DNA of 16,182 bases from a virus (lineage: Duplodnaviria > Heunggongvirae > Uroviricota > Caudoviricetes): IMG/VR virus record IMGVR_UViG_2526164689_000027, positions 1 through 16,182 of that record. The stretch is one strand, 5' to 3'. This document shows, in pieces, positions 1 to 14,901 of this stretch. Every line of letters begins with the position of its first letter. Position 1 is the stretch's first letter. Both the position numbers and the translations under genes were made by a program. The notes beneath the pieces are model-generated. The model saw only the letters and a program-made list of their open reading frames with translations, was not told where the DNA came from and ran no database searches.

Positions 1-399
1 ATTCAGCGTACTCATATCCTGCACATCATGCAGGCAGTGGTCAGCCGGGATGATGTCGTTATACGTACAACTCTCTCCACCCGGAGTTACCGTGCTGCGG
101 CGCGCCAGCTGTTTAATGCGCGGATCCGGAGCATCGTAAGAATCCGGTAACGGAAGCCCTTCACCGTAGGCCATGCCGTTGGACTGTCCGGCAAGCACAA
201 CCACGTAGAACCAGTCCGGCTCAGATGAAGGGCCGACCTGTGGATCTCCTTCAATAGCCACCGCCTGCATCAGTGTGTACGGCGTAATGGCAACCGGTCC
301 GCCATATGGCTGCCAGCCCTCTTTCAGTTTGTGTGTCAGCTTTTCCGCAAGGTCTGACGGCGACGCCGCCCTGACAACATCATAATGTTTAATCGACAT
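1..399 (-). CDS. N-terminal 133 codons of a prophage NanS-p-like sialate O-acetylesterase (DUF1737-like N-terminus plus SGNH/SASA esterase domain); 3' end beyond window
   Basis: ATG at 399-397 with GGGAG SD 7 nt upstream; frame stays open to position 1. Translation begins MSIKHYDVVRAASPSDLAEKL and contains DWFYVVVLAGQSNGMAYGEG, which matches the GQSN catalytic-serine block of SGNH esterases. Not in the supplied ORF track because it is truncated. Confidence 0.6.
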   Translation of the reverse strand, partial: MSIKHYDVVRAASPSDLAEKLTHKLKEGWQPYGGPVAITPYTLMQAVAIEGDPQVGPSSEPDWFYVVVLAGQSNGMAYGEGLPLPDSYDAPDPRIKQLARRSTVTPGGESCTYNDIIPADHCLHDVQDMSTLN

Positions 400-782
400 C
401 GAATTTCTCCCGTGTACAGGAACAGAGTTAAAAAGCCGGAACCGGAATCAAATTACAGGATGGCCATCTGCCAGTGGCTGGTCGTAAAAAAAGGCCACGC
501 CATGCGCAGCCGGAAATAAAGGGATAACGATGATAGTTTGAGAAAAACAGAAACGACACTTTTGTGGCAAAGCATGGTGCCGGGTGCCTCCCGGTGAGTT
601 CAGCCCGGTGCCACTAAACCCTCGTCATTCTCGTTTTGATAATCAGAGATTATACCGTCACCAGTCGCCCCTCCGCTCAGGGGGATTCACCATGCAGTTT
701 TTTTCTAACAAATTCTCATCCGGGCAGACAACATTCAACTGACTTAATTGTGAGGTATGTAACATTCCTGTTGAACGGATAC

Positions 783-812
783 AAAAAAAGCCAGCCACTG
801 GGGGAGGCTGGC
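783..812 (-). terminator. Rho-independent terminator (minus-strand transcripts)
   Basis: Perfect 7-bp stem GCCAGCC (790-796) / GGCTGGC (806-812) with a 9-nt loop, followed on the minus strand by a run of 7 U (complement of A783-A789). Confidence 0.5.
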
Positions 813-995
813 GAAACTCGTAGAGCAAAAGTGTTGTTACACTAACTTCGTCACAGGGTTATCCTGCAATACTCAAAATACACAATATTTACAAAACTAA
901 TAGTATACAAGGCGATCTTTAAGATTTTGTTATAAATTATTGCCTTTCTCCTCTTTCCATGAGCTTTCTGGATAGCCACAGAATTCCGGGTACAG

Positions 996-1020
996 AAAAA
1001 CCCGCTCAGCGGCGGGTTTT
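996..1020 (-). terminator. Rho-independent terminator, tR'-like, closing the short transcript from the Q-adjacent promoter; symmetric so possibly bidirectional
   Basis: Stem CCCGC (1001-1005) / GCGGG (1012-1016) with a 6-nt loop, flanked by A5 on one side and T4 on the other, so a U-run follows the hairpin on either strand. Confidence 0.5.
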
Positions 1021-1069
1021 GCTACTTTGCCATCACGTACAAAATCGGCAAAATATCAGATTTGCATGA

Positions 1070-1098
1070 AATATATGCCTTTTAATCTACTTTTGCAA
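1070..1098 (-). promoter_or_regulatory. Sigma-70 late promoter, pR'-like, immediately downstream of the Q-like gene
   Basis: On the minus strand: -35 TTGCAA (1098-1093), 17-nt spacer, -10 TATATT (1075-1070). Predicted start near 1062 gives a ~65-nt transcript ending at the 996-1020 terminator, the arrangement used by Q antiterminators in lambda and phage 82. Confidence 0.35.
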
Positions 1099-1102
1099 TA
1101 CT

Positions 1103-1771
1103 TTACTGTGAAAATGCCGCCTTTTGTTTTAAACGTGTTATCGTCACGAACAATAAAGCCTCATTATCCAGCCGGTGAAAAATGTGTTTCATTGCAACCC
1201 AGTGGCCAGTAAATGTTTTGGACCAGTTTTTGGTTGTCACTCCCGCCAGTAATGCCAGCTCCTGGTATTCATAACCTTCCCCACCAAAAAGTTCTGCTTT
1301 TACTGCCTGCGCCGCCAGCCAGATTAATTTTTTCAGGCGTTCCTGCGTTTTCCCTGCAATTTTTCTGGTACCAGATTGAGTATTAAATTCATTCCACGCC
1401 CACTGTGTTATCGCGATCTGATATTCCCAACAAATGCTCTCGCTGTAACACCACAACAACCAGGCTTTATGATGTTCTTCAAGAGACAGAACAGCCCGCC
1501 GCCACGATGATGTCGAAAACTCAACCGGACTGACCAGAGGAATTGATGTCCCCTTCGCCAGCGATTGCTTTCCCGGGATTGGTGGATTATCCCGCGTTAT
1601 CATTTTTCCGGTCACCTCATCTCTGTACCGGATTTTTTTTCTCCTGTAACGCCCTGTATCGAACATGGCATTCTCCTGCCAGGCTTCAAGCTGACCTTTT
1701 GTTGCCTCACTCAAATCAGCGGTGGCGATAATGAGCTGCTCACGCACAAACTGTAAATACTGGTTATTCAT
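1103..1771 (-). CDS. Late-gene antitermination protein Q-like (222 aa)
   Basis: ATG at 1771 overlaps the rusA stop (ATGA) with GGAG SD; the track start at 1777 is a GTG. Position directly after RusA/DUF968 and directly before a promoter-terminator pair is the canonical Q position. Family assignment is from recollection of prophage Q proteins of this size, not from a computed alignment. Confidence 0.5.
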   Translation of the reverse strand: MNNQYLQFVREQLIIATADLSEATKGQLEAWQENAMFDTGRYRRKKIRYRDEVTGKMITRDNPPIPGKQSLAKGTSIPLVSPVEFSTSSWRRAVLSLEEHHKAWLLWCYSESICWEYQIAITQWAWNEFNTQSGTRKIAGKTQERLKKLIWLAAQAVKAELFGGEGYEYQELALLAGVTTKNWSKTFTGHWVAMKHIFHRLDNEALLFVTITRLKQKAAFSQ

Positions 1772-2127
1772 GCGCACTCCAGTTCTGTGATTTTTATCCC
1801 CAGCCGCCCACCAGAAACGAGCTGACCGCGCACAATATTGATTTCATCAAACTGCTCGTCGTCTATGAGAAGTCCGGCATGCGTCAGCGCATCCAGTGGT
1901 GCTTTCAGGATATTGTCCAGGTCACGACGGCGCTTATCCGGTGGCTCTGCAATAATTTTTATTGCCAGCCGTCCGGACAGGCTTAATTTCAGTCGCTGCT
2001 GGCGAACAATTAGTGCCACATCACGGCGATAACGCTCACCGACTTTTGATACAAAATATGTGTTGCCACGACGTCGCCAGTAAGTATTCACCGTCGGCGG
2101 GTAAGGTAAAACCAAATCTATGAGCAT
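1768..2127 (-). CDS. rusA: Crossover junction endodeoxyribonuclease RusA (Holliday junction resolvase)
   Basis: 119 aa with ATG at 2127 and GAGGTG SD. Contains LPYPPTVNTYWRRRG and PDKRRRDLDNILKAPLDALTHAGLLIDDEQ, matching the conserved RusA core including the catalytic DRRRRDLDN-type block. Confidence 0.85.
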   Translation of the reverse strand: MLIDLVLPYPPTVNTYWRRRGNTYFVSKVGERYRRDVALIVRQQRLKLSLSGRLAIKIIAEPPDKRRRDLDNILKAPLDALTHAGLLIDDEQFDEINIVRGQLVSGGRLGIKITELECA

Positions 2128-2139
2128 CAGTCACCTCTT

Positions 2140-3189
2140 TTACCCGAGCACGCCAGTCGCAAAGGCGTGATCAAGAAAACGAAAAATTAACTCAATCTGA
2201 GAGCCGTACTTTTTCTCAAACTTCAGCGGGTCTGCATGAAGTTCGTTGTGGTGCTCCCGGCACAACGGTAGCGTGAAAATATCGTGGGCCTTTGTTCCCA
2301 CTCCCCCCTGACCATGACCAATCAGGTGATGCGGATCGTCAGCTGGCTTACCACAACACGCACACGGCTGTGTCTTTACCCAGCGCGTGTATTTCTCATT
2401 AACCCAACGGCGACGTTTAGGCCGCCTCATGAACGATTCAGGAGACTCCGGATCAACGGCGATACTGACAACCGTTTTTTTCTGTGGTGGATTTTGTTGC
2501 TGGTGGACGTGAAGTGGCAGCGCAATATTTTTTGTGCGCTGCTTCAGTATGCTGATGGCTGTCTGTTCTCCCGGTACGATGTCACTCTCACGGTATACGG
2601 AGCGGATTTTTTCCGCTGGTAATCCCAGCGAACGACGCGCTACTGCCTCAGGTAGTGCATCCACCACCTGATTGCAGGCCGCCCACCAGGATAATTCGGC
2701 CAGCGATAACTCCCTCTCCTGCGTACCGCTTATTGCGTGACGGATGACATCAATCATCCAGGCAACCAGATTCTGCTGAGCAAGTTGATCGAGTGATTCT
2801 GATGTCTGGTCGCGCAGCTGGTTGTCACAGTGCCAGCACAACACCATCGCGCCGGTACCATAACGGTGAATGACTGTTTCGCTGTGATGATAATCGCCGT
2901 GTGGCCACTGGCAGGATTTCACGTGACGTAATAACCAGTCAGACAGTGCACCTGCACCACCTGCTGCACGAATAACCCGCTCATCGCTGAAAAATGGCAG
3001 TAATGTTTTATCCTCTGCCAGCGGCTGGCGAACGGCAGGAACGACTCCGGACGGCAGACCACGCATGTTTTTCGGTTCCGGCTCCACCAATATTCTGCCG
3101 TTATGGAATACTGACATTGATTCACGGCCTGGCTTAACGATAACCAGACCGAGTTCCGGTACCAGAACAGGTCGAAGTAATACCCGCAC
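2140..3189 (-). CDS. ydfU: DUF968-family prophage protein (YdfU-like) with C-terminal HNH-like motif
   Basis: 349 aa from a GTG start at 3189 with GGAGGT SD, 1 nt after the upstream stop. Synteny with rusA and the Q-like gene matches Qin ydfU. C-terminus CACCGKPADDPHHLIGHGQGGVGTKAHDIFTLPLCREHHNELH resembles an HNH/zinc-finger nuclease motif. Confidence 0.65.
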   Translation of the reverse strand: MRVLLRPVLVPELGLVIVKPGRESMSVFHNGRILVEPEPKNMRGLPSGVVPAVRQPLAEDKTLLPFFSDERVIRAAGGAGALSDWLLRHVKSCQWPHGDYHHSETVIHRYGTGAMVLCWHCDNQLRDQTSESLDQLAQQNLVAWMIDVIRHAISGTQERELSLAELSWWAACNQVVDALPEAVARRSLGLPAEKIRSVYRESDIVPGEQTAISILKQRTKNIALPLHVHQQQNPPQKKTVVSIAVDPESPESFMRRPKRRRWVNEKYTRWVKTQPCACCGKPADDPHHLIGHGQGGVGTKAHDIFTLPLCREHHNELHADPLKFEKKYGSQIELIFRFLDHAFATGVLG

Positions 3190-3190
3190 G

Positions 3191-3460
3191 TTACCTCCAG
3201 ATGCGCTGCAGGAATGTGCGGGACGGACGCGGTGGGCGTTCGGAATAAGGGAGCCTGACGGAGATTATCCAGTGACGACGATCGAAGCTGAGGGCTTTCT
3301 CAAACTCATATCCGCGCCTGCGGTAACACTGGATCAGCCATTCGGCCTGTTCTTCAGTGCATAGGGGATGCTGGAACCAGTCGGTTTTAAATACGTGCGA
3401 ACACCGCCCTTGCCTACTGGCAAGGGCGGCAGAATTGTGCAATCTGCTATCGTGCGCCAT
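3191..3460 (-). CDS. Hypothetical nin-region protein (89 aa)
   Basis: ATG at 3460 with GGAG SD about 9 nt upstream; the stop abuts the DUF968 start. No recognisable motif. Confidence 0.4.
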   Translation of the reverse strand: MAHDSRLHNSAALASRQGRCSHVFKTDWFQHPLCTEEQAEWLIQCYRRRGYEFEKALSFDRRHWIISVRLPYSERPPRPSRTFLQRIWR

Positions 3461-3513
3461 CGGGATCTCCGGTGGCACGGTGTTTCTCAGCGACGGTTCA
3501 AGTCAGCCTGATT

Positions 3514-3741
3514 TTATAGCTGCTTCTGAATATCATCAACAGGTAATCCTGCCAACTCTCTTACCTCAGAAAGAAGAGAAAGGCTTACAACAACCTCATT
3601 ACTTCGCATAACAAAACCACATTGAAAAGAACCATCACTGTTTCTGTAAACAACAACCGGGCGCGTGCTCTCATAAAACCCCGGGATCAAACTGGCTGGG
3701 ATTTTCACAACACCTCCTGACGTAAAGGAAATGAAATGCAT
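3514..3741 (-). CDS. Hypothetical small protein (75 aa; alternative start at 3786)
   Basis: Open frame on the operon strand; ATG at 3741 has only a weak purine-rich SD. No recognisable motif. Confidence 0.3.
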   Translation of the reverse strand: MHFISFTSGGVVKIPASLIPGFYESTRPVVVYRNSDGSFQCGFVMRSNEVVVSLSLLSEVRELAGLPVDDIQKQL

Positions 3742-3929
3742 TATCGCTTCTCTCGGACTATAACCATGAAAAGAGACGCATTTCACTCAGTAAATCTGAG
3801 GATTTTATGCGCAAGAACAATGACTTTTTCTGTCTGCCGTTTATACAATCTGAATTACGTCTATTTTTTGAACACCGATAAATCAGCAAGCATTCTCAAA
3901 TAAAGATTGCCTCCATAGTCCACATGGTG

Positions 3930-3944
3930 TAACACTATGTGTTA
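3930..3944 (+). promoter_or_regulatory. Palindromic putative operator in the promoter of the toxin-antitoxin pair
   Basis: TAACAC-TAT-GTGTTA perfect inverted repeat, overlapping an AT-rich -10-like TATATAAAAT about 20 nt upstream of the toxin ATG (3965). Type II TA operons are usually autoregulated through such palindromes. Confidence 0.3.
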
Positions 3945-3964
3945 TATAAAATGCAGAGGCAGGT

Positions 3965-4336
3965 ATGCGAATTTTCAAAAACGCCTGGTTTGAACGTTTC
4001 GCCCGAAAACATCGGATTTCCGATAAATCGCTGCGCAAAATCGTGGAGCAGGCCGATAAGGGGATCATATCCGCAAATTTGGGTAGTGGTGTCATTAAAC
4101 AAAGATTAGCCCGAAGTGGTGGCGGAAAATCAGGCGGTTACCGGACAATAATTTTTTACCGCGTTGCAGAAAAAGCCTTTTTCATCTACGCATACGCAAA
4201 GAATGAACGAGAGAATATCACTGCTATAGAGGAAAATGCTTTTCGAAAAGCCGCTCCCCATGTCCTCAATCTTACTGATGAACAGCTGGCACAATTGATT
4301 CAACAAGGCCAGTTCACGGAGGTACCCAATGAGTAA
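3965..4336 (+). CDS. RelE/ParE-superfamily toxin, HigB-2 / Gp49-like (123 aa)
   Basis: Block GSGVIKQRLARSGGGKSGGYRTIIFYRVAEKAFFIYAYAKNERENITAIEENAFRK parallels the V. cholerae HigB-2 core (GTGGLRKIRV...GKRGGSRIIYYF...YLLTIYGKNE). Its stop overlaps the start of the next gene by 8 nt, with toxin first as in HigBA-type operons. Confidence 0.7.
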   Translation: MRIFKNAWFERFARKHRISDKSLRKIVEQADKGIISANLGSGVIKQRLARSGGGKSGGYRTIIFYRVAEKAFFIYAYAKNERENITAIEENAFRKAAPHVLNLTDEQLAQLIQQGQFTEVPNE

Positions 4337-4646
4337 AAATTACCGCAGTGATGCACTTGCATCTGTACATGAAATGATGGAGTCACTCCATGATATCGGT
4401 GCAATCACAAAACAAACTATGCGCGAATTCGATGAAACTTGTCTTCAGCCTGCGCCGGTAATGTCTCCGGAAAGGATCCGTGCACTGCGAGAACGAGAGC
4501 ATCTGTCTCAACCTGTTTTTGCCAGATACCTCAACGTCAGTAAAAACCTGATATCAGACTGGGAACGAGGAGTGAAACGCCCGGGAGGTGCAGCTCTTCG
4601 GCTTCTTTCAGTTGTCGAGAAAAACGGGATCCAGGTAATATCCTGA
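4329..4646 (+). CDS. HTH (XRE-type) antitoxin, HigA-2-like (105 aa)
   Basis: Translationally coupled to the toxin. C-terminal region RIRALREREHLSQPVFARYLNVSKNLISDWERGVKRPGGAALRLL is a typical XRE helix-turn-helix. Confidence 0.7.
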   Translation: MSKNYRSDALASVHEMMESLHDIGAITKQTMREFDETCLQPAPVMSPERIRALREREHLSQPVFARYLNVSKNLISDWERGVKRPGGAALRLLSVVEKNGIQVIS

Positions 4647-4748
4647 TATTCTAATACAACAAAACCCGCCGAAGCAGGTTAAGTGCGGGTGCGTTGAGGA
4701 TGCCTGACACATCAGAGGTGGCGAGGGATTTCTCCCTCGCCAGGTCTC

Positions 4749-4904
4749 TTACTCCTCAGGTTCGTAAGCTGTGAAGACAGCGACCTCCGTCTGGCCGGTT
4801 CGGATTCGTACCTCGCAGAGGTCTTTCCTCGTTACCAGTGCCGTCACTATGACGGTTAAACAGATGACAATCAGGGCGATTAACATCGCCTTTTGCTGCT
4901 TCAT
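4749..4904 (-). CDS. hokD: Hok/Gef-family type I membrane toxin (HokD/RelF-like, 51 aa)
   Basis: MKQQKAMLIALIVICLTVIVTALVTRKDLCEVRIRTGQTEVAVFTAYEPEE matches the Hok/Gef family across its full length (transmembrane helix then conserved CEVR..GQTEVAVFTAYE). ATG at 4904; the track ORF extends in frame to an upstream ATG at 4961. Confidence 0.85.
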   Translation of the reverse strand: MKQQKAMLIALIVICLTVIVTALVTRKDLCEVRIRTGQTEVAVFTAYEPEE

Positions 4905-5175
4905 AGCCTGCTTCTCCTTGCCTTTCGGCACGTAAGAGGCTAACCTACATGTGCAAAGCATGAAATTGGCCTCAGATTAATGTTAAGCGTCCTGCAAGAC
5001 GCGTAATGTTAACTGGGGCTTTTCTCTGTCTGCCTTACGGCGGCATGCCCGAGGCAGACAGCCTCAAGCACCCGCAGCAATTCTACTTAACTCTTCTTTC
5101 CCCGCAAATCATTTTATCCCCGATGGTAATGTTCTCCCGATATGGGAATTCCCATATCAAGGTTAACTCAATCGG

Positions 5176-5727
5176 TTAAAGCTCCATTAATTTTCCGGCC
5201 AGTTCATCTCGTGGCATTACCAGCCATCCGCGCGATTTAAGCAAAGCCAGGGCTTCTTCAACCGTCACCAGCTGGCCAGGCGCATAACTTCGGATGAAGG
5301 CGGTTTTATCGTCACGGATCGCCAGGTGAAAATCGATATTCATTTTTCCCATAGCCCGCTCTTTCTCGTACTGGTTGAAGTAACTGTCTTCGAGTTTTTC
5401 GAATACTTCCCACGCCTGATCGGTTTCGAGCATTTTTGCATGACGGGCTGCTCCGCGTTCTGTCCAGAGGATGAGAGTGCGGGTTTTGGGAGAAATTTTC
5501 ACCTCATTTTGCGACTCGTTTAAAACTAGTCGCAAATTTTTGAGCTCATCACCAACAGCTTTAAAGAAGTGTTTTCCCTCAATAAATCGAGATTTATTTT
5601 CATGGTGATTCTGCTGTATACGGATTGCTTCTGTTCCGTAAAGGCGGGCGAGTAACTCAGTTGTGATTACAGGAATCTGGTTATAAGTGACAGGGGAAAG
5701 GTTTTTGACAGTAACTTGAGTCGTCAT
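5176..5727 (-). CDS. ORF6N-domain protein (phage antirepressor-like, 183 aa)
   Basis: ATG at 5727 with GAGGG SD. N-terminus ITTELLARLYGTEAIRIQQNHHENKSRFIEGKHFFKAVGDEL fits the ORF6N/KilA-N-like consensus (from recollection). Confidence 0.5.
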   Translation of the reverse strand: MTTQVTVKNLSPVTYNQIPVITTELLARLYGTEAIRIQQNHHENKSRFIEGKHFFKAVGDELKNLRLVLNESQNEVKISPKTRTLILWTERGAARHAKMLETDQAWEVFEKLEDSYFNQYEKERAMGKMNIDFHLAIRDDKTAFIRSYAPGQLVTVEEALALLKSRGWLVMPRDELAGKLMEL

Positions 5728-5891
5728 GATAACGCCCTCTGGTTGATGAATTTAACTATCACCACCTTCAGGTCTCAATCATCAGGTGGCGAGACGTACA
5801 GGGTTGAGACTACCGGATCAACCAACCGGCCAGCCTTTCGGCTGCCCCATACGCCTCACCATAATTCAGATGTGCGTGCGCATACGACAAT

Positions 5892-5913
5892 AAAAAACAC
5901 GCTCGCGGCGTGT
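5892..5913 (-). terminator. Rho-independent terminator in the nin-type region (tR2-like position)
   Basis: On the minus strand: stem ACACGC / GCGTGT with 5-nt loop CGCGA, followed by 6 U (complement of A5892-A5897). Confidence 0.45.
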
Positions 5914-5998
5914 GTCTGTCGCGGTTGAATATCCGGGGTCTCAATCCCGACGGTCAACTCGACCGTGCGGTGAATATAGCCCCGGATTAGTAATTACG

Positions 5999-6082
5999 TC
6001 AACCCCAGCGGCAAATCGAATAAACCACCAGCGCTACCGCCATTGCAACTCCTGCCGTTACGAATGCCTCAGGCCAGGTCAT
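5999..6082 (-). CDS. Possible 27-aa hydrophobic peptide (MTWPEAFVTAGVAMAVALVVYSICRWG)
   Basis: ATG overlaps the stop of the upstream small gene (ATGA, 6082-6079). The peptide is one predicted transmembrane helix. Below the size cutoff of the ORF track; no dedicated SD. Confidence 0.2.
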   Translation of the reverse strand: MTWPEAFVTAGVAMAVALVVYSICRWG

Positions 6083-6264
6083 CGTAAACTATCCTCAGCG
6101 CCAATCAGTCCGTTTCGCTTCAGGCAGTCCATCGCTTTATACGGTAATTTGGCTGACAGGCGAAAATCACCCTGCAGCATCAGGCTTATTCCCTTATCCC
6201 GGGCTTTCGCTCTGACCGCTGCCTCGCTACGACCAATCAGACTGCCGATACTTTCGACAGTCAT
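6079..6264 (-). CDS. Small putative DNA-binding protein (61 aa, NinH-like position)
   Basis: ATG at 6264; start is uncertain because the track ORF begins upstream at a non-ATG codon. MTVESIGSLIGRSEAAVRAKARDKGISL looks like a helix-turn-helix. Confidence 0.35.
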   Translation of the reverse strand: MTVESIGSLIGRSEAAVRAKARDKGISLMLQGDFRLSAKLPYKAMDCLKRNGLIGAEDSLR

Positions 6265-6323
6265 CGTTCCCGCGCACTGCCGGAGTATCAGAATTTCAGC
6301 CCGGCACCACGTCTTCCACCCAC

Positions 6324-7085
6324 TCACCGCTGCTGTTCTCTGGTGGCGGTAATATCCCGGAGAATATCCCGGCACTTGTTCAGCTCCCGCAGCGCGGCGC
6401 AGACTCGCTCCCACTTCTGAACCTGACCTTTTGCCCGGCGCAGCTCGCGGTTAGCCACATGCAGCGATGGTAAAATCAGCCCATCCGGATGCTTTCTGGT
6501 GAACGACGGCTGTGACTGCACTGTGACCGCCACACTTTCCGTTTTTATTTCTTCCTGTGTTTCCGCTTCCCGGACTGGTAACGCAACACATGCTGGCTGA
6601 GGAAAGGCTTTACCATCGGTTTCCGCTACGGATGCAGCTTCCGGCTCTGCCGGTAAATCAGCGCCCGGTATGCAGTAACGAAATTTACCGTTCTGATTTA
6701 CGCGTGCCAGGCGCCCCGTTGCTGTTACGACCGCCAACGTGGAAGCAACCTTGCGAATGCTAACACCGAACTTATCCGCCAGTTCCTCACACGTTTTAGC
6801 CCCATCCTGACAGATAAACTCAATCATCATGTCCGCGGTAACTTTTTGTTCGACCTCCCCGGTCAGCACATCCGGTACTTCAGACTGTGCTGGCTGTTCT
6901 TCGGTTACCCCGGATTCACCTTCGACAGCCAGAAACCAGGTGTGACCCGTTTTATCAACAACGCCATTTTTTTTGAGTTCCCACAGTTCGTTGAGAACTT
7001 CTTCACGGCTGATATCAAGCCGCGCCGCCAGTTCAACAGAATTGGCTTTACCCATCGCTTTCAGTGCATGCAATACGGTTCCCAT
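6324..7085 (-). CDS. Tandem winged-helix protein (254 aa), function unknown
   Basis: ATG at 7085 with GGAGG SD 9 nt upstream. Two repeated wHTH-like segments, [44 protein letters not shown] and [43 protein letters not shown], plus a charged C-terminal helix. Confidence 0.5.
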
Positions 7086-7119
7086 TAAAATTTCCTCCGG
7101 ATAAAAATTACTTCTCAAA

Positions 7120-7785
7120 TCAGACAAAACCAGCCGCTTTCCGGCGTTCATACTCCTGTTTCAGCAACTCAATTGGCGTTGGTCCCAACGGGCGTTTTGG
7201 TGCCGCCAGTTGTCGCCGTACTGGCGGAACGCTCAGGCCGTTACTAACATGCTTTGCCCATTTCGTCAGCTGCCGTTCTGCAAGCCGTTTTAATTCCCCT
7301 TCGGTCATCTGGCGTTCAATCCCCTTTGAACGCATCTCGAGGCAAATGTGATACAGCACAGGCTGAGGCCACGGATATTTGTCGCTTCCGTTATATCGCC
7401 AGGACTCATTACGCCAGCGGCGATACTCCTCCATCACAGCATCCACCGTCAGGCCAAATGGATTGGCCCCGCTTTCCGAAATCAGCGCCACAAACTCAGC
7501 CAGGTCCGGAGGCCATGTTTCACCCGCCCGGCAGCGGTCCATGCACTGGCGGCAGACCTGCCGGATTTGCTGCTCAGTCATCGCGCCAATCTGTGCAATC
7601 CAGAGCTTCGAAGGTGCGGCCCCGTTCTTCTGGGTCCAGCGGTTCGAATAAACCTCCCCCATGAGTTCCCACAGCTTCCAGGCCGTTTCCGTCGCTGATA
7701 AATCCGTTTTCACGTTCCCACTGCTCACGTGCTGCCCGAATTTCCTGAACTGCCCGTGATGCGGTGCCACCTGGTGCTGCTGCAT
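7120..7785 (-). CDS. Replication protein P-like (lambda P family helicase loader, 221 aa)
   Basis: ATG at 7785 with AGGGGG SD, 4 nt after the O-like stop. Recalled blockwise similarity to lambda P: [13 protein letters not shown] vs [28 protein letters not shown] vs [33 protein letters not shown] vs TDAELRRKAADEL. Confidence 0.6.
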
Positions 7786-7788
7786 GGT

Positions 7789-8613
7789 TTACCCCCTTGC
7801 TGACTGGTTAACCTGCGCCCTGACGTGATTTACGTGACGGGCGAATTTCTGCTCCCACTGAATCTGCGTAAACACTTTCCCCTCCGCTGCCCAGTAGTCC
7901 CGGAATGCGGTAAGTTCAGCAGGTGTAAATTCTGTCTCCGGCAAAGCCATCCCCCACAACGCAGCCCGTCGTCGAAAATCCCGTGACGGATACCAGCTAT
8001 CGGTCATCGGAAATTTTCCGATGGGTTCGCTCAGGCCATCCAGGAATACATGGGGGGCTGCCTGTAACGACAAAACTTCCTGCTCACTGATCGGAGCACT
8101 CTCGCGTGCGTTATGTGTGGGGTTTAGATCTTTGGGTTCCTTTGGGTTCCGTGATCCGTTTTTGGGTGTCTTTGATGGAAAATTTGGGTGTCTTTGGTTA
8201 TTTTCCATGCAACAAAGAGTTCCGTTTTTGGGGCTCTTTTGTGCTGAAACATAACCGTTTTCGGTACTGTTTTTATTAACAGCACCAATTTTACCCACCT
8301 TTAAAGACACCCGTTTTTGGGTGTATTCAGGCTCGGCAACACTTTCTTCTACACCGATAAGTCGGTACACCACAATTTGCTTTGTTCTGCCTTTTCTCTC
8401 ACCGGTATCAACAATTAACCCAATCTCCATCAGGTGTCGTAAGCTGTCCTGCACAGTCTTTTTGTTCAGTTCCGTTACTTCTGCCAGTGCAGATACAGAC
8501 GGGTATGCACACAAATCGGCACCGCACATATCAGCAAGCCAGGTCAATACAGACTTACTGGATGAACTGCCGGTTTTCACCTTTTTAGCCCATCGTAGTG
8601 CATCGATACTCAT
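7789..8613 (-). CDS. Replication initiator, lambda O-like (274 aa), with ori iterons embedded in the coding sequence
   Basis: ATG at 8613 with AGGGG SD; the track's longer start at 8688 would overlap the upstream gene by about 100 nt. N-terminal wHTH (MSIDALRWAKK...LRHLMEIGLIVD), a repeat-encoded linker (KSPKNGT...SKTPKNGSRNPKEPK), and a C-terminal domain, directly upstream of the P-like gene. Confidence 0.6.
   Translation of the reverse strand: MSIDALRWAKKVKTGSSSSKSVLTWLADMCGADLCAYPSVSALAEVTELNKKTVQDSLRHLMEIGLIVDTGERKGRTKQIVVYRLIGVEESVAEPEYTQKRVSLKVGKIGAVNKNSTENGYVSAQKSPKNGTLCCMENNQRHPNFPSKTPKNGSRNPKEPKDLNPTHNARESAPISEQEVLSLQAAPHVFLDGLSEPIGKFPMTDSWYPSRDFRRRAALWGMALPETEFTPAELTAFRDYWAAEGKVFTQIQWEQKFARHVNHVRAQVNQSARG
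8131..8324. repeat. Iteron cluster, putative prophage origin of replication
   Basis: TTTGGGTTCC twice in tandem (8131-8150); TTTGGGTGTCTTTG at 8161-8174 and 8184-8197; degenerate copies at 8225-8240 and 8311-8324; an inverted copy AAAGACACCC at 8303-8312; AT-rich stretch 8253-8300. Lies in the linker region of the O-like gene, as the lambda ori does. Confidence 0.5.
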
Positions 8614-9136
8614 ACGAACCCCTGGCAGATATTTGTTTATCTGCAAAGTAATATTGATACTGCTGACGATACGCATGCTTGAAAGCAATAGCTTTTTCTA
8701 TAAGCTCGTCAGTCTCACGTTCCACAACAGATGGATCCGCAAAAAGCAGTCCGGACTCCACCACATCGCCATATTCTTTGTTTAACCCGGCGATCATGTA
8801 CGTGATGCTTTTTCCGTCACTAATTTCACGATACAACCTGAAATCATTAATCCGGATAGCCTCCATAATTGCAGGCACTAGCGCCGTGAACTTTTCACGC
8901 TTATCCCTGGTGTCGATAGCCTTCCAGCGTTCGAATATCTTCACTCGATTAACGCCAAGCGCTCGCTGATCAACCGCGCCACCTTCATCTGTGACACGCT
9001 GAACATCGATGTTCGGGCGCTCTTTCAAAACCCAGAATGCTTCAGTGATTAATATCGTCGCCTGCTCCTGTGTCATTCCTGGTCGACATATCCAGGCATC
9101 CAGAGCCTCACGAGCCTGTTCAGGAGTGATTTTCAT
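8585..9136 (-). CDS. Protein in the cII position (183 aa), possibly YdaT-like
   Basis: ATG at 9136 overlaps the end of the cro-like gene by 17 nt. Sits between cro-like and O-like genes. Family assignment is by position only and is weak. Confidence 0.4.
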   Translation of the reverse strand: MKITPEQAREALDAWICRPGMTQEQATILITEAFWVLKERPNIDVQRVTDEGGAVDQRALGVNRVKIFERWKAIDTRDKREKFTALVPAIMEAIRINDFRLYREISDGKSITYMIAGLNKEYGDVVESGLLFADPSVVERETDELIEKAIAFKHAYRQQYQYYFADKQISARGSYEYRCTTMG

Positions 9137-9347
9137 TGTTCAACCGCCCCGCCCGCTTCGTCTTACGATATTCGTCATAAACCTTGGGATCATACAGAAG
9201 CTCGCCGCCAGATGCCTCCTGTAGACGCATCGCGCGACCTTCAGGAACTAGCTCTTGCCATTGAGAAACAGCAGATGGGTCAACGCCAGCAGCTTTCGCT
9301 ACTTTGGCTTTCGTACCGTAAAAATTAATTACGTCTGATTTAAACAT
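9120..9347 (-). CDS. dicC: Cro-like HTH regulator (DicC / YdaS family, 75 aa)
   Basis: ATG at 9347 with GGAGGT SD; the track start at 9374 is upstream of the SD. Divergent from the repressor gene. AKVAKAAGVDPSAVSQWQ is a Cro/CI-type HTH, and the C-terminus RAMRLQEASGGELLYDPKVYDEY is typical of this family. Confidence 0.65.
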   Translation of the reverse strand: MFKSDVINFYGTKAKVAKAAGVDPSAVSQWQELVPEGRAMRLQEASGGELLYDPKVYDEYRKTKRAGRLNNENHS

Positions 9348-9354
9348 CGCACCT

Positions 9355-9424
9355 CCAATATTGAGTTTTCTCAATACTAATCACTCAAGGAATCTCAAGT
9401 CAAGGGTTATTAAGATATCTAAAT
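9355..9424. promoter_or_regulatory. Divergent immunity promoter/operator region (oR-like)
   Basis: 14-bp palindrome TTGAGTTTTCTCAA at 9361-9374. On the minus strand, -35 TTGACT (9403-9398) and a -10-like TAGTAT follow with the palindrome over the start site. The repressor gene starts at 9425 with no strong SD. Confidence 0.45.
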
Positions 9425-9832
9425 ATGAACGAGAAAACTTTAGGTCAACGCATTAGAGAAAGACGTAAGCAGGTAGGCTTAAGTCAAAACGGTTTAAGCA
9501 AAGCTGCTGGCGTATCTGGCTCATCAATTTCATTATGGGAAAGTGACCATACAGCCCCGCGCGGGCAAAATTTGCATCGCCTCGCCGAGGTATTGCAATG
9601 TTCACCAACCTGGATACTGTTTGGCGACGAGGACAAAACACCAGCTCCCCCTGTTTCACTCGATAGTACCCTAGACTTATCGGAAGATGAGTTAGAGATG
9701 CTGCGTTTGTATCGCGCACTTCCTAAATCAGAGCAACAAGCACAACTCAGCGAACTCCGCGCCCGCGTTGAGAATTTTAATCGCCTGTTCACCGAGCTAT
9801 TAGAGGCTCGCAAACGCAACAAGCATCAATAA
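9425..9832 (+). CDS. dicA: DicA-like prophage repressor (XRE HTH, 135 aa)
   Basis: N-terminal HTH QRIRERRKQVGLSQNGLSKAAGVSGSSISLWESDH, then LQCSPTWILFGDEDK and C-terminus ELRARVENFNRLFTELLEARKRN, closely matching my recollection of E. coli DicA, which is also 135 aa. Confidence 0.8.
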   Translation: MNEKTLGQRIRERRKQVGLSQNGLSKAAGVSGSSISLWESDHTAPRGQNLHRLAEVLQCSPTWILFGDEDKTPAPPVSLDSTLDLSEDELEMLRLYRALPKSEQQAQLSELRARVENFNRLFTELLEARKRNKHQ

Positions 9833-9890
9833 TCATCCCTTCACAAAATTTTAAAGCCTTACATTTCAATGTATTGGCTTTATCTTGCGC

Positions 9891-9948
9891 CAATACTTGA
9901 GTTTTCTCATCAAAAAACCTTGACGAAAAATAATGAGAAAACTAAATT
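9891..9948 (+). promoter_or_regulatory. oL/pL-like operator-promoter for the leftward early operon
   Basis: CAATACTTGAGTTTTCTCA (9891-9909) repeats the oR motif CAATATTGAGTTTTCTCA (9356-9373) with one extra base; an inverted copy ATGAGAAAACTA is at 9932-9943. -35 TTGACG (9920-9925), 17-nt spacer, -10 TAAATT (9943-9948), with operator copies covering the spacer. Confidence 0.4.
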
Positions 9949-10024
9949 ATCTCCATCAACACACCGCACGGTGTTCTCCGCAAACAGTTCCGCTACCCCG
10001 GCGTTAAGGGGAAATGAGGTCAGC

Positions 10025-10177
10025 ATGGATACTATCGATCTTGGCAACAACGAATCTCTGGTATGTGGCGTGTTTCCCAATCAGGACGGCACGTTTACCG
10101 CGATGACGTATACCAGAAGCAAAACGTTTAAAACGGAAGCTGGCGCGCGTCGCTGGTTAGCAAGAAACTCTGACTGA
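10025..10177 (+). CDS. ydfA: YdfA-like small protein (50 aa), first gene of the dicB-type operon
   Basis: ATG at 10025 with GAGG SD 7 nt upstream; the longer track ORF from 9869 has no SD and crosses the promoter. Size and position after dicA match Qin ydfA. Confidence 0.5.
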   Translation: MDTIDLGNNESLVCGVFPNQDGTFTAMTYTRSKTFKTEAGARRWLARNSD

Positions 10178-10827
10178 TGAGGTTGACGATGGAATTTAAA
10201 GATTTACCTCCTTCAATCCAGGAGATTGCAGCACACACACTTCGTCATCGTCTGAACGAACTTGAATTGGAATCGGTAACGAAAAAAGACACTGATAATA
10301 TGGCTCGTAATGTGCGCGATGCGTTTACCGGATTGTATTTCTGTGCGTCTATAAATAAACACGACTCAGAGAGTGTGGCAAATAAAATTGCAGAAACGAC
10401 AGCGCAAAACATCAATACGAAACCAACGGAAGAAGAAATTGATCAGTTTGCTCATGATGCTGGTTTAAAAAACAAGAAAGAAAAATCGCCATATGCGGGG
10501 AACATGTTTGTTTATGACAATCTCATCAGAATTCGTGGCGAAATTCCGGCGGAATACCTGGCAAGAGTCCATCAGGCATTGCTTAAAAATTTGGAAACAG
10601 AATTATTTGATGGCAACACTAACGGTTTCTTCATGGTATCAGGCCTTGAGAAAGACTGGGATGCAGAAAAACGCTGGAATGTTGCTACATGGTTATTCAG
10701 TAACAGAGCCGCTGCACTGGAAGCTTCGGCATGTATTTGCGGCCTGTTCTTAACAGACCACAAATATAATCTGGATGTGTACAGTTATATTTACGCTGAA
10801 CACGGTCCACTCTGGATTGACTGGTAA
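10177..10827 (+). CDS. Hypothetical 216-aa protein, no recognisable domain (alternative start 10189)
   Basis: ATG at 10177 overlaps the upstream stop (TGATG); the internal ATG at 10189 has a GAGG SD. Soluble, acidic, no transmembrane segment or nucleotide-binding motif seen. Occupies the slot where I recall Qin carrying only the small ydfB/ydfC genes. Confidence 0.5.
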   Translation: MRLTMEFKDLPPSIQEIAAHTLRHRLNELELESVTKKDTDNMARNVRDAFTGLYFCASINKHDSESVANKIAETTAQNINTKPTEEEIDQFAHDAGLKNKKEKSPYAGNMFVYDNLIRIRGEIPAEYLARVHQALLKNLETELFDGNTNGFFMVSGLEKDWDAEKRWNVATWLFSNRAAALEASACICGLFLTDHKYNLDVYSYIYAEHGPLWIDW

Positions 10828-11037
10828 TTATAAGGAAACACCAGCAGGGCCGCGGCGACCAACAGAACGATTAAAATCAATAATGCCATTATAAAGGACA
10901 TTATTTAATTTATCGTCGAATGCTGATTCTGTGAGCCTCAACTCTGAATGAGTTTTTAATAACCCTGATTGCCTGAGTTGATTTACCAGGCATTCAATCT
11001 GTTTTTCAATAAGCGGATTTCTTTTTTTGTTTGGCAT
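10828..11037 (-). CDS. Hypothetical 69-aa protein, convergent with and abutting the 216-aa gene
   Basis: ATG at 11037 with GGAGGA SD 5 nt upstream. Its stop codon (10830-10828) directly abuts the stop of the plus-strand gene (10825-10827). Opposite orientation to the surrounding operon. Confidence 0.35.
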   Translation of the reverse strand: MPNKKRNPLIEKQIECLVNQLRQSGLLKTHSELRLTESAFDDKLNNVLYNGIIDFNRSVGRRGPAGVSL

Positions 11038-11376
11038 TTTATCCTCCATTGAGGTTCTGGGTTAAAAATGGAGACCAACACGCTGTCACGTGTGGTCGTG
11101 CGCCGGACACGGATAAGAATCCGGTACTGACAGTTTACTGAAAGGATATTTCCCTGAAAAGTCAGTGCATAACGCGAAAGCGTACGGCGAAGCTCTTTCC
11201 CTTAGAAGGCTTGTCGTTAGATTTCTTCGAACGTGCGCTTCCGGTTGTGGCACTCCGCGAAATGGCGCGGCGGTAAGTATGGCGGGGTTATTCCTTCCCC
11301 AGTTGAGGACACCGGGTTGTCAGGTTGACCATACGCTTAAGTGACAACCCCGCTACAACGCCCTCTGTTATCAATA

Positions 11377-11434
11377 TTCTGGTGACATTTGGCGGTATCA
11401 GTTTTACTCCGTGACTGCTCTGCCGCCCTTTTTT
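11377..11434 (+). ncRNA. dicF: DicF small regulatory RNA (Hfq-dependent sRNA targeting ftsZ and other mRNAs)
   Basis: TTCTGGTGACATTTGGCGGTATCAGTTTTACTCCGTGACTGCTCTGCCGCCCTTTTTT matches my recollection of E. coli DicF almost base for base, including the terminator hairpin GGCGG (11391-11395) / CCGCC (11423-11427) and U-tract. Lies just upstream of dicB as in Qin. The 5' end is approximate (RNase-processed in K-12). Confidence 0.7.
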
Positions 11435-11604
11435 AAAAGTGAATTTTGTGATGCGGTGAATGCGGCTCAGCGCACGCGGAACAGTTAAAACCAAAAACAG
11501 TGTTATGGGTGGATTCTCTGTATCCGGCGTTAATTGTTAACTGGTTAACGTCACCTGGAGGCACCAGGCACCGCATCACAAAATTCATTGTTGAGGACGC
11601 GATA

Positions 11605-11793
11605 ATGGAAAAGTTATCATGTAATGCCAGCACGTCTGAACTTCGTTTCGAAATTGGCGTTATCACTGGAGACAAAACATTTATTGAAGACGCCATTAAG
11701 CAGAGAAAACTCGAGCAGGACCTGTTAAATGAAGTATGCATTCCTTCAATGCTGGCTCGTCTGGACCTGCTGCAAAAAGGATATAAACAATGA
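11605..11793 (+). CDS. dicB: Cell-division inhibitor DicB (62 aa)
   Basis: ATG at 11605 with GAGGA SD; the track ORF from 11500 would run through DicF. MEKLSCNASTSELRFEIGVITGDKTFIEDAIKQRKLEQDLLNEVCIPSMLARLDLLQKGYKQ aligns with recalled DicB (FEIGV, EDAI, SMLARL blocks) at the same 62-aa length. Confidence 0.8.
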   Translation: MEKLSCNASTSELRFEIGVITGDKTFIEDAIKQRKLEQDLLNEVCIPSMLARLDLLQKGYKQ

Positions 11794-11981
11794 ATACAAC
11801 ATTTGCACTCGTTCTGACAGTTTATCTTGTTTCCGGCGAATCTCTTGAGCTGGTGACTGGCTTATACGGTTCAATGAAAGAATGCATGGCTGCAGCAGCA
11901 GAACAAAAAATTCCCGGTAACTGTTATCCGGTAGATAAAACTACTCACACTAATAATAACGAAATACCGGCAGGACTTTAA
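11790..11981 (+). CDS. ydfD: YdfD-like small lysis/membrane protein (63 aa)
   Basis: ATG overlaps the dicB stop (ATGA). Hydrophobic N-terminus MNTTFALVLTVYLVSG, 63 aa, immediately after dicB as in Qin. Confidence 0.65.
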   Translation: MNTTFALVLTVYLVSGESLELVTGLYGSMKECMAAAAEQKIPGNCYPVDKTTHTNNNEIPAGL

Positions 11982-12074
11982 AACAGCACCGTAATTAATA
12001 TCCGGTTTCATTTTTATATGCCAGCAATGGCAGGGATTTGTTCACCCTTAAATCTGTAATGAGGTTAAAACAAA

Positions 12075-14546
12075 ATGAGTAAAGTCTTTATTTGCGCCGC
12101 CATTCCGGACGAACAGGCAATAAAAGAAGAGGGCGCAGTTGCTGTAGCCACTGCCATTGAAGCCGGTGATGAACGCCGCGCCCGTGCCAAATTTACCTGG
12201 CAATTCCTGGAGCAATATCCTGCTGCTCAGGACTGCGCTTATAAATTTCTTGTCTGCGAAGATAAACCTGGCATGCCCCGCCCTGCTATCGACTCCTGGG
12301 ATACCGAATATATGCAGGAAAACCGCTGGGATGAGGAATCCGCTTCCTTTATTCCGGTCGAACCAGAATCCGATCCTATTAACGTCAATTTTGACAAGCT
12401 GTCCCTTGAAGTACAGAACGCGGTCCTGGTTAAGTTCGGTACATGTGAAAACATCACCGTTGATATGGCGATTGACGCGCAGGAATTACTGCAAGAAGAC
12501 GTGGCTACCTTTGACGGACATATCGTTGAAGCACTGATGAAAACGCCTGAAATTAACGCTATGTATCCGGAACGCAAACTGTTCGCTATCGGATGGGTTA
12601 AACACAAATGTAAGCCGGGTACCAAATGGCCCGAAATTCAGGCTGAATTACGTAACTGGAAAAAACGGCAGGACGCAGAGCGCAAAGAGACTGGAAAATA
12701 CACGTCTGTTGTTGATCTTGCCCGCGCCAAAGCCAACCGACAGCACACTGAAAACCCAGCAGAAAAAATCCCTCCTGTAACTGCCGCCATTCATCGCGAA
12801 TACAAGCAGACATGGAAAACCCTGGACAGGGAGCTGGCCTACTATCTCTGGCCTGGTGATGCGGATGCCGGAAACATTGACGGCAGCATCCTTCGCTGGG
12901 CTAAAAATGAAGTTATCGCCAGAGATCGCGAAGACTGGAAGCGCATCTCCGCATCAATGCGCAAACAACCTGATGCGCTTCGCTACAGCCGCCAGACTAT
13001 TTTTGGCCTTGTCCGTGAACGTCCGATCGACATTCACAAAGACCCTGTGGCACTGAACAAATACATTACTGAATACCTGACTACAAAGGGCGTGTTTGAA
13101 GATGAAGGAAGAAATCAGAGCGCAACTGATACTCTCTCGTCGCCAGTACCAGAAACTGATGCAGTGGAAACGGCAATTCAGGACAACGAAAAAACCGAAT
13201 GCAAAGTGGAAGTCGAATCATCTGTAGAGCGTGAGGGGCCGTTCTACTTCCTCTTCAGCGACAAGGATGGCGAAAAATACGGTCGTGCAAACAAACTTTC
13301 TGGTCTGAATAAGGCGCTGGCTGCAGGGGCTACTGAAATCACGAAAGAAGAATATTTTGCCCGCAAAAACGGTACATACTCAGGTTCACAACAAAATACT
13401 GGTGCATCTGACACGATCGCACAACCGGAGCCGGTAAAAGTTACCGCTGACGAAGTAAACAAAATTATGCAGGCAGCCAATATCAGCCAGCCTGACGCCG
13501 ATAAGTTGCTTGCTGTATCACGTGGTGAATTTGTTGCAGGGATTAGCGACCCGAATGATCCGAAATGGGTGAAGGAGATTGAAACCCGCGATTCAGTGAA
13601 TCAGAACCAGCAAGAAACGGAACAGAACGACCAGAAAGCGGAACAAAACAGCCCAAATGCGTTACAAAACGAGCCAGAAACGAAACAATCCGAACCAGTA
13701 GTGCAACAGGAACCGGAAAAAGTCTGCACCGCCTGCGGTCAGAGCGGTGGCGGCAACTGCCCCGATTGTGGCGCTGTCATGGGCAACGCAACATACCAGG
13801 AAACATTCGATGAAGAGAATCAGGTTGAAGCTCAGGAGAATGATCCGGAGGAAATGGAAGGCGCTGAACATCCACACAAGGAGAACACTGGCGGCAATCA
13901 GCATCACGCCAGCGATAGTGAAACTGGCGAGGCGGCAGATCCCTTAATTAAGGTGAATGGTCATCACAATCTCACATCCACCAGCAGAGCGGGGATTCAT
14001 CTGATGATCGACATTGAAACCATGGGAAAAAATCCCAATGCCGCGATTATCTCAATAGGCGCAATATTTTTCGATCCACAAACCGGAGATATGGGACCGG
14101 AATTTAGCAAGACCATCGATCTGGATACTGCTGGCGGAGTTATTGATCGTGACGTCATTAAATGGTGGCTGAAGCAATCACGTGAAGCGCAGTCTGCCAT
14201 TCTGACCGATGAAATCCCGTTAGATGATGCACTACTGCAATTGCGGGAATTTATCGCCGAAAACTCCGGTGAATTTTTTGTTCAGGTCTGGGGAAATGGA
14301 GCCAACTTCGACAACGTGATTTTACGCCGTTCATACGAACGGCAGGGGATCCCCTGCCCCTGGCACTACCACAACGATCGCGATGTACGCACAATCGTTG
14401 AGCTAGGGAAAGCCATAGACTTCGATGCCAGAACAGCTATCCCATTCGAAGGTGAGCGCCACAATGCACTTGATGACGCCCGTTACCAGGCAAAATACGT
14501 TTCAGCTATCTGGCAAAAACTGATCCCGAGTCAGGCTGATTTTTAA
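12075..14546 (+). CDS. Large prophage exonuclease (823 aa): unassigned N-terminal region, Cys4 zinc ribbon, C-terminal DEDDh 3'-5' exonuclease domain
   Basis: ATG at 12075 with GAGG SD. C-terminal motifs MIDIETMG (Exo I), WGNGANFDNVIL (Exo II) and HNALDDARYQ (Exo III) define a DnaQ-like DEDDh exonuclease. CTACGQSGGGNCPDCG (about 13721-13775) is a CxxC...CxxC zinc ribbon. Position corresponds to Qin ydfE, which I recall as a 306-aa IS-truncated remnant in K-12. Confidence 0.75.
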   Translation: MSKVFICAAIPDEQAIKEEGAVAVATAIEAGDERRARAKFTWQFLEQYPAAQDCAYKFLVCEDKPGMPRPAIDSWDTEYMQENRWDEESASFIPVEPESDPINVNFDKLSLEVQNAVLVKFGTCENITVDMAIDAQELLQEDVATFDGHIVEALMKTPEINAMYPERKLFAIGWVKHKCKPGTKWPEIQAELRNWKKRQDAERKETGKYTSVVDLARAKANRQHTENPAEKIPPVTAAIHREYKQTWKTLDRELAYYLWPGDADAGNIDGSILRWAKNEVIARDREDWKRISASMRKQPDALRYSRQTIFGLVRERPIDIHKDPVALNKYITEYLTTKGVFEDEGRNQSATDTLSSPVPETDAVETAIQDNEKTECKVEVESSVEREGPFYFLFSDKDGEKYGRANKLSGLNKALAAGATEITKEEYFARKNGTYSGSQQNTGASDTIAQPEPVKVTADEVNKIMQAANISQPDADKLLAVSRGEFVAGISDPNDPKWVKEIETRDSVNQNQQETEQNDQKAEQNSPNALQNEPETKQSEPVVQQEPEKVCTACGQSGGGNCPDCGAVMGNATYQETFDEENQVEAQENDPEEMEGAEHPHKENTGGNQHHASDSETGEAADPLIKVNGHHNLTSTSRAGIHLMIDIETMGKNPNAAIISIGAIFFDPQTGDMGPEFSKTIDLDTAGGVIDRDVIKWWLKQSREAQSAILTDEIPLDDALLQLREFIAENSGEFFVQVWGNGANFDNVILRRSYERQGIPCPWHYHNDRDVRTIVELGKAIDFDARTAIPFEGERHNALDDARYQAKYVSAIWQKLIPSQADF

Positions 14547-14615
14547 TGTTCAACCATCGCCGGTTGTGACTGGTATTCTGCAACCGGCCCTCATCTGATG
14601 TAAGAGATAAAAGCG

Positions 14616-14867
14616 ATGAGCGAAGTAATCATGATTGTCTCTCCCGGTAAATGGGTATCCGAAGAGCAGTTAATTGCGCTGAAAGGAATAAAAAAAGGTA
14701 CGTTAAAAAAGGCCCGGGAAAAATCGTTTATGGAAGGAAGGGAATATAAGCATGTCGCTCATGACGGTATGCCATGGGATAACAGTCCATGCTTTTACAA
14801 CCTGGAAGAAATTGATCGCTGGATTGAGCGCCAGGCATCTGCAAGACCAAGACGTCATCTTGCTTGA
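14616..14867 (+). CDS. Excisionase-like protein (83 aa)
   Basis: Small basic protein directly upstream of the integrase; WVSEEQLIALKGIKKGTLKKAREKSFMEGREYKH is consistent with a winged-helix Xis fold. Start is uncertain (14616 or 14631). Confidence 0.5.
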   Translation: MSEVIMIVSPGKWVSEEQLIALKGIKKGTLKKAREKSFMEGREYKHVAHDGMPWDNSPCFYNLEEIDRWIERQASARPRRHLA

Positions 14868-14901
14868 CTAAAAGCAACACGAACCAATGAGAGAAGCTGA
14901 A

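Follow-up and report, generated by a model that had tools for sequence, protein, structure and literature searches.

The window, a 16,182-nucleotide stretch of a Caudoviricetes virus (positions 1 to 16,182 of IMG/VR record IMGVR_UViG_2526164689_000027), contains a promoter and a strong hairpin immediately after a gene resembling the late-gene antiterminator gene Q. This arrangement raises the questions of (i) whether these elements form a late-gene control unit (pR', qut, tR'), as the first-pass annotation had proposed; (ii) which of the known Q systems they resemble; and (iii) whether the short RNA that such a unit would produce is more than a by-product. As judged from its sequence, the unit is very probably the late-gene control of a phage-82-type lambdoid prophage. 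Its promoter, pause element and terminators all lie on the minus strand; the first-pass annotation, whose elements proved real, had left the strand unstated.

The plus strand of the window carries the integrase, excisionase, exonuclease, DicF and cI-like repressor genes, and the minus strand those for cro, a YdaT-like protein, an O-like protein, P, DUF1627, ORF6N, hok/sok, DUF968, RusA and Q. Given the lambda gene order, Q thus ends the rightward early operon, which is where a pR' is expected. Over this stretch, the window shows 100% identity with the prophage found in E. coli O111:H11 strain 8D (locus L001), in which an esterase-like gene is followed by genes for a holin, a lysozyme and a lysis protein, all on the strand of Q.

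The Q open reading frame extends from an ATG at 1771 to a TAA at 1105–1103 on the minus strand, and its product of 222 amino acids matches the Pfam profile PF06323 (phage antitermination protein Q) with an E-value of 1.9e-90. The coverage of the profile is nearly complete, residues 4–219 of Q corresponding to profile positions 1–216 of 220, and pairwise identity amounts to 77.0% with phage 82 Q and to 73.9% with the Q82-like protein from phage 434. A search of PDB sequences with the Q protein detected no relative of solved structure. Of the three unrelated Q families that have been described, Q82 was at that time the one lacking a structure (bioRxiv 10.1101/651190); structures have been solved for the Q21 and Q-lambda complexes.

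Alignment of the 3' end of the gene revealed that Q is truncated by seven codons relative to phages 82 and 434, a CAA codon having been replaced by TAA, and that other lineages have TAA or TAG at the identical or a neighbouring codon (L029, L020). Because Q stops seven codons sooner than in phage 82, the -35 hexamer of pR', which belongs to the Q gene in phage 82, in phage 434 and in 83 of the 112 distinct relatives (where the Q stop codon comes 14 nt into the promoter), lies just outside it in the window. Given the loss of the last seven codons of the 82/434 form, the activity of Q is not certain; the tail may be dispensable, or the early-stop copies of Q may be decaying. The record of phage 434 annotates, on the strand opposite to the -35 hexamer, a CII-binding site (TTGC-N6-TTGC) together with the -35 element of paQ. 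As a consequence of the C-to-T change that ends Q early, this CII-type repeat becomes TTGC-N6-TTAC in the window (1093–1108, plus strand); about half of the distinct relatives retain TTGC-N6-TTGC.

A consensus scan placed the promoter TTGCAA-17-TATATT at 1098–1070, with 9 of 12 consensus matches. The -35 hexamer begins 4 nt past the Q stop codon, with AG TA preceding TTGCAA, in agreement with the earlier claim that the promoter starts within 10 bp of that codon. The spacer length is likewise optimal; the accompanying label of a near-consensus promoter was slightly generous, since the -35 hexamer matches at four of six positions and the -10 hexamer at five of six. Downstream of the -10 hexamer follow TCATGC and then AAATCTGATATTTTGCCGATTTTGTACGTGATGGCAAAGTAGC. 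We placed the transcription start at A1063 because this numbering reproduces the published phage 82 positions of GCC (+15 to +17), G (+24) and U (+25); shifting the start by one base in either direction spoils the fit. For the 82 promoter itself, a report cited in PMC5001585 describes heterogeneous initiation by slippage.

The pause element of 82 pR' has been dissected in detail: (i) its -10-like element is an extended -10 and is nearer to consensus than that of lambda; (ii) insertions at +9 shift everything that the pause needs; (iii) insertions at +15 part the -10-like element from a discriminator-like GCC at +15 to +17; (iv) the stretch from +18 to +25 is AT-rich, and a one-base insertion at +18 puts a G at the pause end; and (v) the paused RNA has its 3' U at +25, and another species ends at +26 (PMC5001585). 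With A1063 as +1, all of the position-specific descriptors of that study are reproduced in the window. The pause-element sequence is TGATATTTTGCC (1058–1047), the extended -10-like element TGATATTTT covers +6 to +14, and positions +18 to +25 read GATTTTGT, which is AT-rich and has G at +24 and U at +25. This match was made by positions described in the text of the publication and not by alignment, as the phage 82 record (X92588) stops at the Q stop codon and alignment to it spans the -35 hexamer and the first 11 spacer bases. Over this span the start of the spacer is shared, 9 of the 11 comparable bases being identical and two differing (AAGTAGATTAA in the window versus AACTGGATTAA in phage 82).

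The Q-binding element of such promoters is located between the -35 and -10 hexamers, where 82Q probably binds as a dimer (PMC4914094). By analogy, a putative Q-binding element is expected here within the 1076–1092 spacer.

The transcript would soon encounter an intrinsic terminator. Read from 1020 to 996, tR' consists of AAAACCCGC-CGCTGA-GCGGGUUUU plus U, the 3' side including the U-tract being GCGGGTTTTT; the hairpin, followed by U5, folds with -14.9 kcal/mol (z -2.8). Its U-tract occupies +64 to +68 when counted from A1063, which bears out the claim of a terminator about 65 nt from the promoter. The second terminator reported earlier, at 783–812, is also real and more stable (-18.0 kcal/mol, z -3.75; none of 200 shuffles equalled it), and we identified a third, at 511–493, of -12.8 kcal/mol. 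A simple terminator scan listed neither the 1020–996 nor the 812–783 hairpin: at tR', an A/U extension of the stem consumes the T-run, and at 812–783 the loop of 9 nt falls outside the rules of the scan. The coordinates of all features are collected in Table 1.

Table 1. Positions of the features discussed (window coordinates unless another locus is named).
Feature	Position	Strand	Basis or remark
Gene Q, Q82-family late-gene antiterminator	1103..1771	minus	PF06323 profile match
Early-stop region of Q	1103-1126	minus	CAA to TAA relative to phages 82 and 434
Palindromic TTGCAA region, plus-strand reading	1093-1108	plus	Annotation of the phage 434 record
pR' -35 hexamer TTGCAA (palindrome)	1093..1098	minus	Consensus scan
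pR' spacer, 17 bp, AAGTAGATTAAAAGGCA	1076..1092	minus	Expected site of the Q-binding element
pR' -10 hexamer TATATT	1070..1075	minus	Consensus scan
Inferred transcription start, AAA run, +1 = A1063	1061..1063	minus	7 nt past the -10 hexamer; 82 pR' numbering
Sigma-70-dependent pause element: TG (+6/+7), TATTTT (+9..+14), discriminator-like GCC (+15..+17)	1047..1058	minus	Sequence; description of 82 pR'
Predicted promoter-proximal pause, +25 (U) and +26	1038..1039	minus	Homology to 82 pR'
Leader hairpin, +9..+17 (UAUUUUGCC) with +33..+41 (GGCAAAGUA)	1023..1055	minus	Folding, z -2.25
tR' intrinsic terminator	996..1020	minus	Folding; predicted RNA end at about +64..+68
Inserted 221-nt module, terminator 2 at its end	775-995	minus	Distribution of the module
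Second intrinsic terminator, GCCAGCC-9 nt-GGCUGGC-U7	783..812	minus	Folding
STnc100-family sRNA element (PasD-like)	536..724	minus	Rfam RF02076, 133.7 bits versus a gathering score of 47
Third intrinsic terminator, stem 511-493, U7 at 492-486	486..511	minus	Scan and folding
Start of the first late-region gene (DUF1737 N-terminus of a sialate-esterase-like protein), which leaves the window	1..399	minus	PF08410, E 2.5e-16
True isrK copy	5892-5966	minus	Rfam
isrK promoter and terminator of Gifsy-1	L097 1395-1500		After a Q82-family gene

Q82-family loci were collected from species-representative genomes, viral contigs (with four Q queries) and phage records. A fixed layout (-35, 17 bp, -10, 11 bp, NGNTA) was found in 266 of the 298 loci, and these yielded 182 distinct promoter-leader sequences. 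Among the latter, the -35 hexamer is TTGCAA in 180, the -10 hexamer is CATATT, TATATT, TACATT or GATATT in 175, and the element at +6 is TGATAT (154) or TGGTAT (20) in 174. The layout occurs across many Enterobacteriaceae and is still present in Hafnia phage yong2 and Citrobacter phage phiNP, the Q proteins of which are only 34% and 30% identical, respectively. Of the loci that lack the motif, most are cut contigs or show one-base departures (TATATC in L006, TTGCAG in L013, a 10-nt gap in L004); Gifsy-1 and N15 are true exceptions.

An intrinsic terminator is present at the equivalent place in 169 of the 182 distinct relatives, formed by at least eight unrelated hairpin sequences. In a covariance-model alignment, 94.7% of the cells of the tR' helix are paired, a figure that does not exceed 61% once the partners are shifted against each other, and nine of nine pairs have changes on both sides, although pairing counts from an alignment that was itself fitted to the model are biased in the model's favour. 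The distance to the terminator varies: the U-tract starts at +47–49 in 39 relatives, at +58 to +76 in about 91 and at +84–93 in 33, and farther downstream in the remainder, out to about +165. This conserved layout, together with the Q82-family protein, the pause positions and the lysis genes downstream, supports the proposal of a Q-dependent late antitermination signature. The related claim, that the cis elements back the assignment of Q independently of protein similarity, also holds, given the conservation of the layout and the match to the 82 pR' positions.

Beyond the sequence features described above, the unit shares with the late region of phage 82, the model system of the Roberts laboratory, a terminator close downstream. 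The locus of phage 434 (OL657226) is similar in its Q, its -35/-10/TGnTAT layout and its CCCGC/GYGGG-type terminator, but its leader is 17 nt shorter, with the U-tract at +47, it is without the 3' arm of the leader hairpin described below, and it has GTA rather than GCC at +15 to +17. The lambda pR'-qut-tR' system, the source of 6S RNA, offers a more distant parallel: there too, a constitutive promoter follows Q, a Q-binding element lies in the promoter, and a sigma-dependent pause, a terminated short RNA and processive antitermination are found. However, lambda Q belongs to an unrelated family (PF03589), pausing occurs at +16/+17 and the short transcript has a length of about 194 nt. In phage 21 and the Shiga toxin phages, a terminated late-promoter transcript is likewise made from pR'-tR' and accumulates in lysogens as StxS (PMC7547250), but the Q proteins are of another family, pR' and tR' are 258 nt apart, and RNase E cleavage yields a 74-nt Hfq-binding sRNA with known targets. 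Gifsy-1, finally, also has a Q82-family gene (66% identity), directly downstream of which lie a promoter and a terminated RNA of short length. There the promoter is TTGACA-17-TATATT, TGnTAT is absent at +6, and the RNA is IsrK, the isrK promoter and terminator taking the place of an 82-type pR'.

From the sequence elements and their exact spacing, together with the agreement with the published phage 82 positions and the conservation among relatives, we infer transcription, pausing, Q binding and read-through in this prophage along the following lines. The host sigma-70 RNA polymerase would start constitutively near A1063; region 2 of sigma-70 would then re-bind the extended -10-like element at +6 to +14, and the complex would scrunch and pause at +25/+26. 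Without Q, the polymerase would leave the pause and terminate at 1020–996, producing an RNA of about 64–68 nt. Once the early operon had supplied enough Q, the protein, bound between the -35 and -10 hexamers, would join the paused complex and stay on; the Q-modified polymerase should then resist tR' and the terminators at 812–783 and 511–493, so that the esterase and lysis genes are transcribed.

Could the hairpin instead be no more than the terminator of the early (Q) operon, with promoter hexamers next to it by chance? We regard this as extremely improbable. Promoter-like sites are indeed no commoner in the window than in shuffled sequences (23 versus 19.0 +/- 5.1 expected), so that the promoter alone proves nothing, and the tR' hairpin, having an A-tract upstream as well as its U-tract, could act bidirectionally. 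Chance would nevertheless have to account for a -35, -10 and TGnTAT spacing that is identical in nearly nine-tenths of the loci, for a nearly invariant TTGCAA, and for positions that match the published 82 pR'. The composite motif TTGCAA-N17-TATATT-N11-TGNTAT occurs a single time in the window and in none of 200 dinucleotide-preserving shuffles with two mismatches permitted. Moreover, the promoter is kept although in most relatives its -35 hexamer is inside the Q frame. A different possibility is that the elements are intact but a relic, the prophage being defective and its shortened Q no longer able to antiterminate. We consider this unlikely. The seven missing codons are compatible with it, as are the stops at the same or nearby codons in other lineages and the visibly damaged terminators of three relatives (L004, L006, L007). 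Yet the early stops, independent of one another in several lineages, are as compatible with a dispensable tail as with decay, and Q still covers the Pfam model almost end to end. In addition, the promoter, the pause element and the terminator of the window are undamaged, and the 1.4-kb stretch from Q to the esterase gene is 99.8–100% identical in 12 genomes belonging to several serotypes.

The remaining alternative concerns the RNA itself. The late promoters of phages 21, phi80, 82 and P22 give rise to short terminated RNAs, and the authors of the StxS study have proposed antiterminated phage promoters as a source of sRNAs (PMC7547250). With StxS of the Shiga toxin phages as precedent, the main role of the unit in lysogens might be to provide a stable, trans-acting sRNA of about 66 nt, antitermination being either kept or lost. 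The predicted fold of this RNA, a 5' hairpin followed by the U-tailed terminator (-23.6 kcal/mol, z -3.57), is in line with this, as is the retention of the segment: of 5426 complete E. coli genomes, 1107 contain its 116 nt (990–1105) with a coverage of at least 80%, in up to four copies each, and the segment carries no regulatory or RNA annotation in the records listed. We nonetheless think such a role distinctly improbable, as Hfq binding and targets are hypothetical for the RNA, DNA-level signals (the pause element and the terminator) occupy most of its length, and the wide variation of the leader in both length and sequence among relatives argues against a conserved seed. Its sole Rfam match, to isrK (RF01394), is sub-threshold; the segment 995–1065 scores 18.3 bits (E 0.18) against a gathering score of 50. 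We rejected an identity with IsrK, since alignment to the real isrK of the window and to that of Gifsy-1 revealed an unconvincing, generic similarity only.

Within the reading as a phage-82-type late switch, one feature of the leader deserves separate consideration. A hairpin pairs the RNA copy of the pause element with a downstream segment. Equivalent pairings are present in long-leader relatives, as GUGCCA/UGGCA, GUCG/CGAC and UAUGCUGCC/GGCGGCAUG (the last with z -3.9), giving four sequence versions in total with two-sided changes among them; the hairpin includes G-U pairs, which would pair on the minus strand alone. Within the window's own hairpin type, three arm substitutions are all pairing-neutral. 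In the model-fitted alignment, from which versions C and D were excluded and which shares the bias noted for tR', 81% of the cells are paired and eight of nine pairs are changed on both sides. On the other hand, many short-leader relatives are missing the hairpin, a helix-length shuffle test gave weak results (p 0.05–1.0 per sequence), and the energy z-scores span -0.7 to -3.9. A MAFFT alignment of 15 leaders analysed with RNAalifold yielded no consensus structure, as the different versions of the hairpin are shifted relative to one another. With such mixed statistics the hairpin is a lead, and suggestive only; that it is a selected RNA element, which would make the RNA of about 66 nt more than a by-product, seems to us unlikely. 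If it were so, the hairpin might add to the stability of the short RNA, help to maintain the efficiency of tR' or belong to an StxS-like sRNA, and in the last case a regulatory RNA of that kind would be present in about a fifth of E. coli genomes.

The phage-82-type late switch is a known and well-studied textbook arrangement, and its presence here leaves current understanding unchanged. Its value lies mainly in annotation, as the late operon of a common type of STEC prophage is thereby assigned a strand, a transcription start and a regulatory logic. Since Q82 is the sole Q family for which a sequence search found no solved structure, the survey of cis elements, with its fixed -35/-10/TGnTAT positions and variable leader, may also guide the choice of templates for structural work.

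The interval from tR' to the first late gene is 664 nt, and three terminators and two inserted RNA modules are encountered from pR' on. The first module, of 221 nt, is present in 105 of 5426 E. coli genomes; in some genomes it follows another antiterminator gene, of the ydfT type, with similarity from the tR' hairpin onward and 100% identity over about 940–781. It matches no Rfam family above threshold (the sub-threshold scores are 26 bits for Qrr and 16 bits for Esr41), and it may be a previously undescribed sRNA gene. An identification of this module (995–775) with PasA/PasC was dismissed on account of its position, as PasA/PasC come after the esterase gene. The second module, the STnc100-family element, adjoins the esterase-like gene on its upstream side and is followed by the third terminator; a related sRNA, PasD, has been reported in the equivalent position upstream of an esterase-like gene (2026 preprint). 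Additional genes and sRNAs are known to be inserted in the region after pR' (PMC4104026), and the modules between tR' and the late gene fit this pattern.

Elsewhere in the window, we noted several further RNA and toxin loci. An isrK (51.2 bits), a C4 antisense RNA (69.4 bits) and the ORF6N-domain gene lie together on the minus strand at 5176–5966 and constitute an IsrK/anti-repressor-type module inside the nin region. A hokD/sok toxin-antitoxin locus occupies 4749–5073 on the same strand (sok, 117.3 bits), and a RelE-like toxin gene with an HTH partner is found on the opposite strand (3965–4646, plus). DicF RNA (77 bits) is encoded in the leftward early region, at 11377–11428 on the plus strand.
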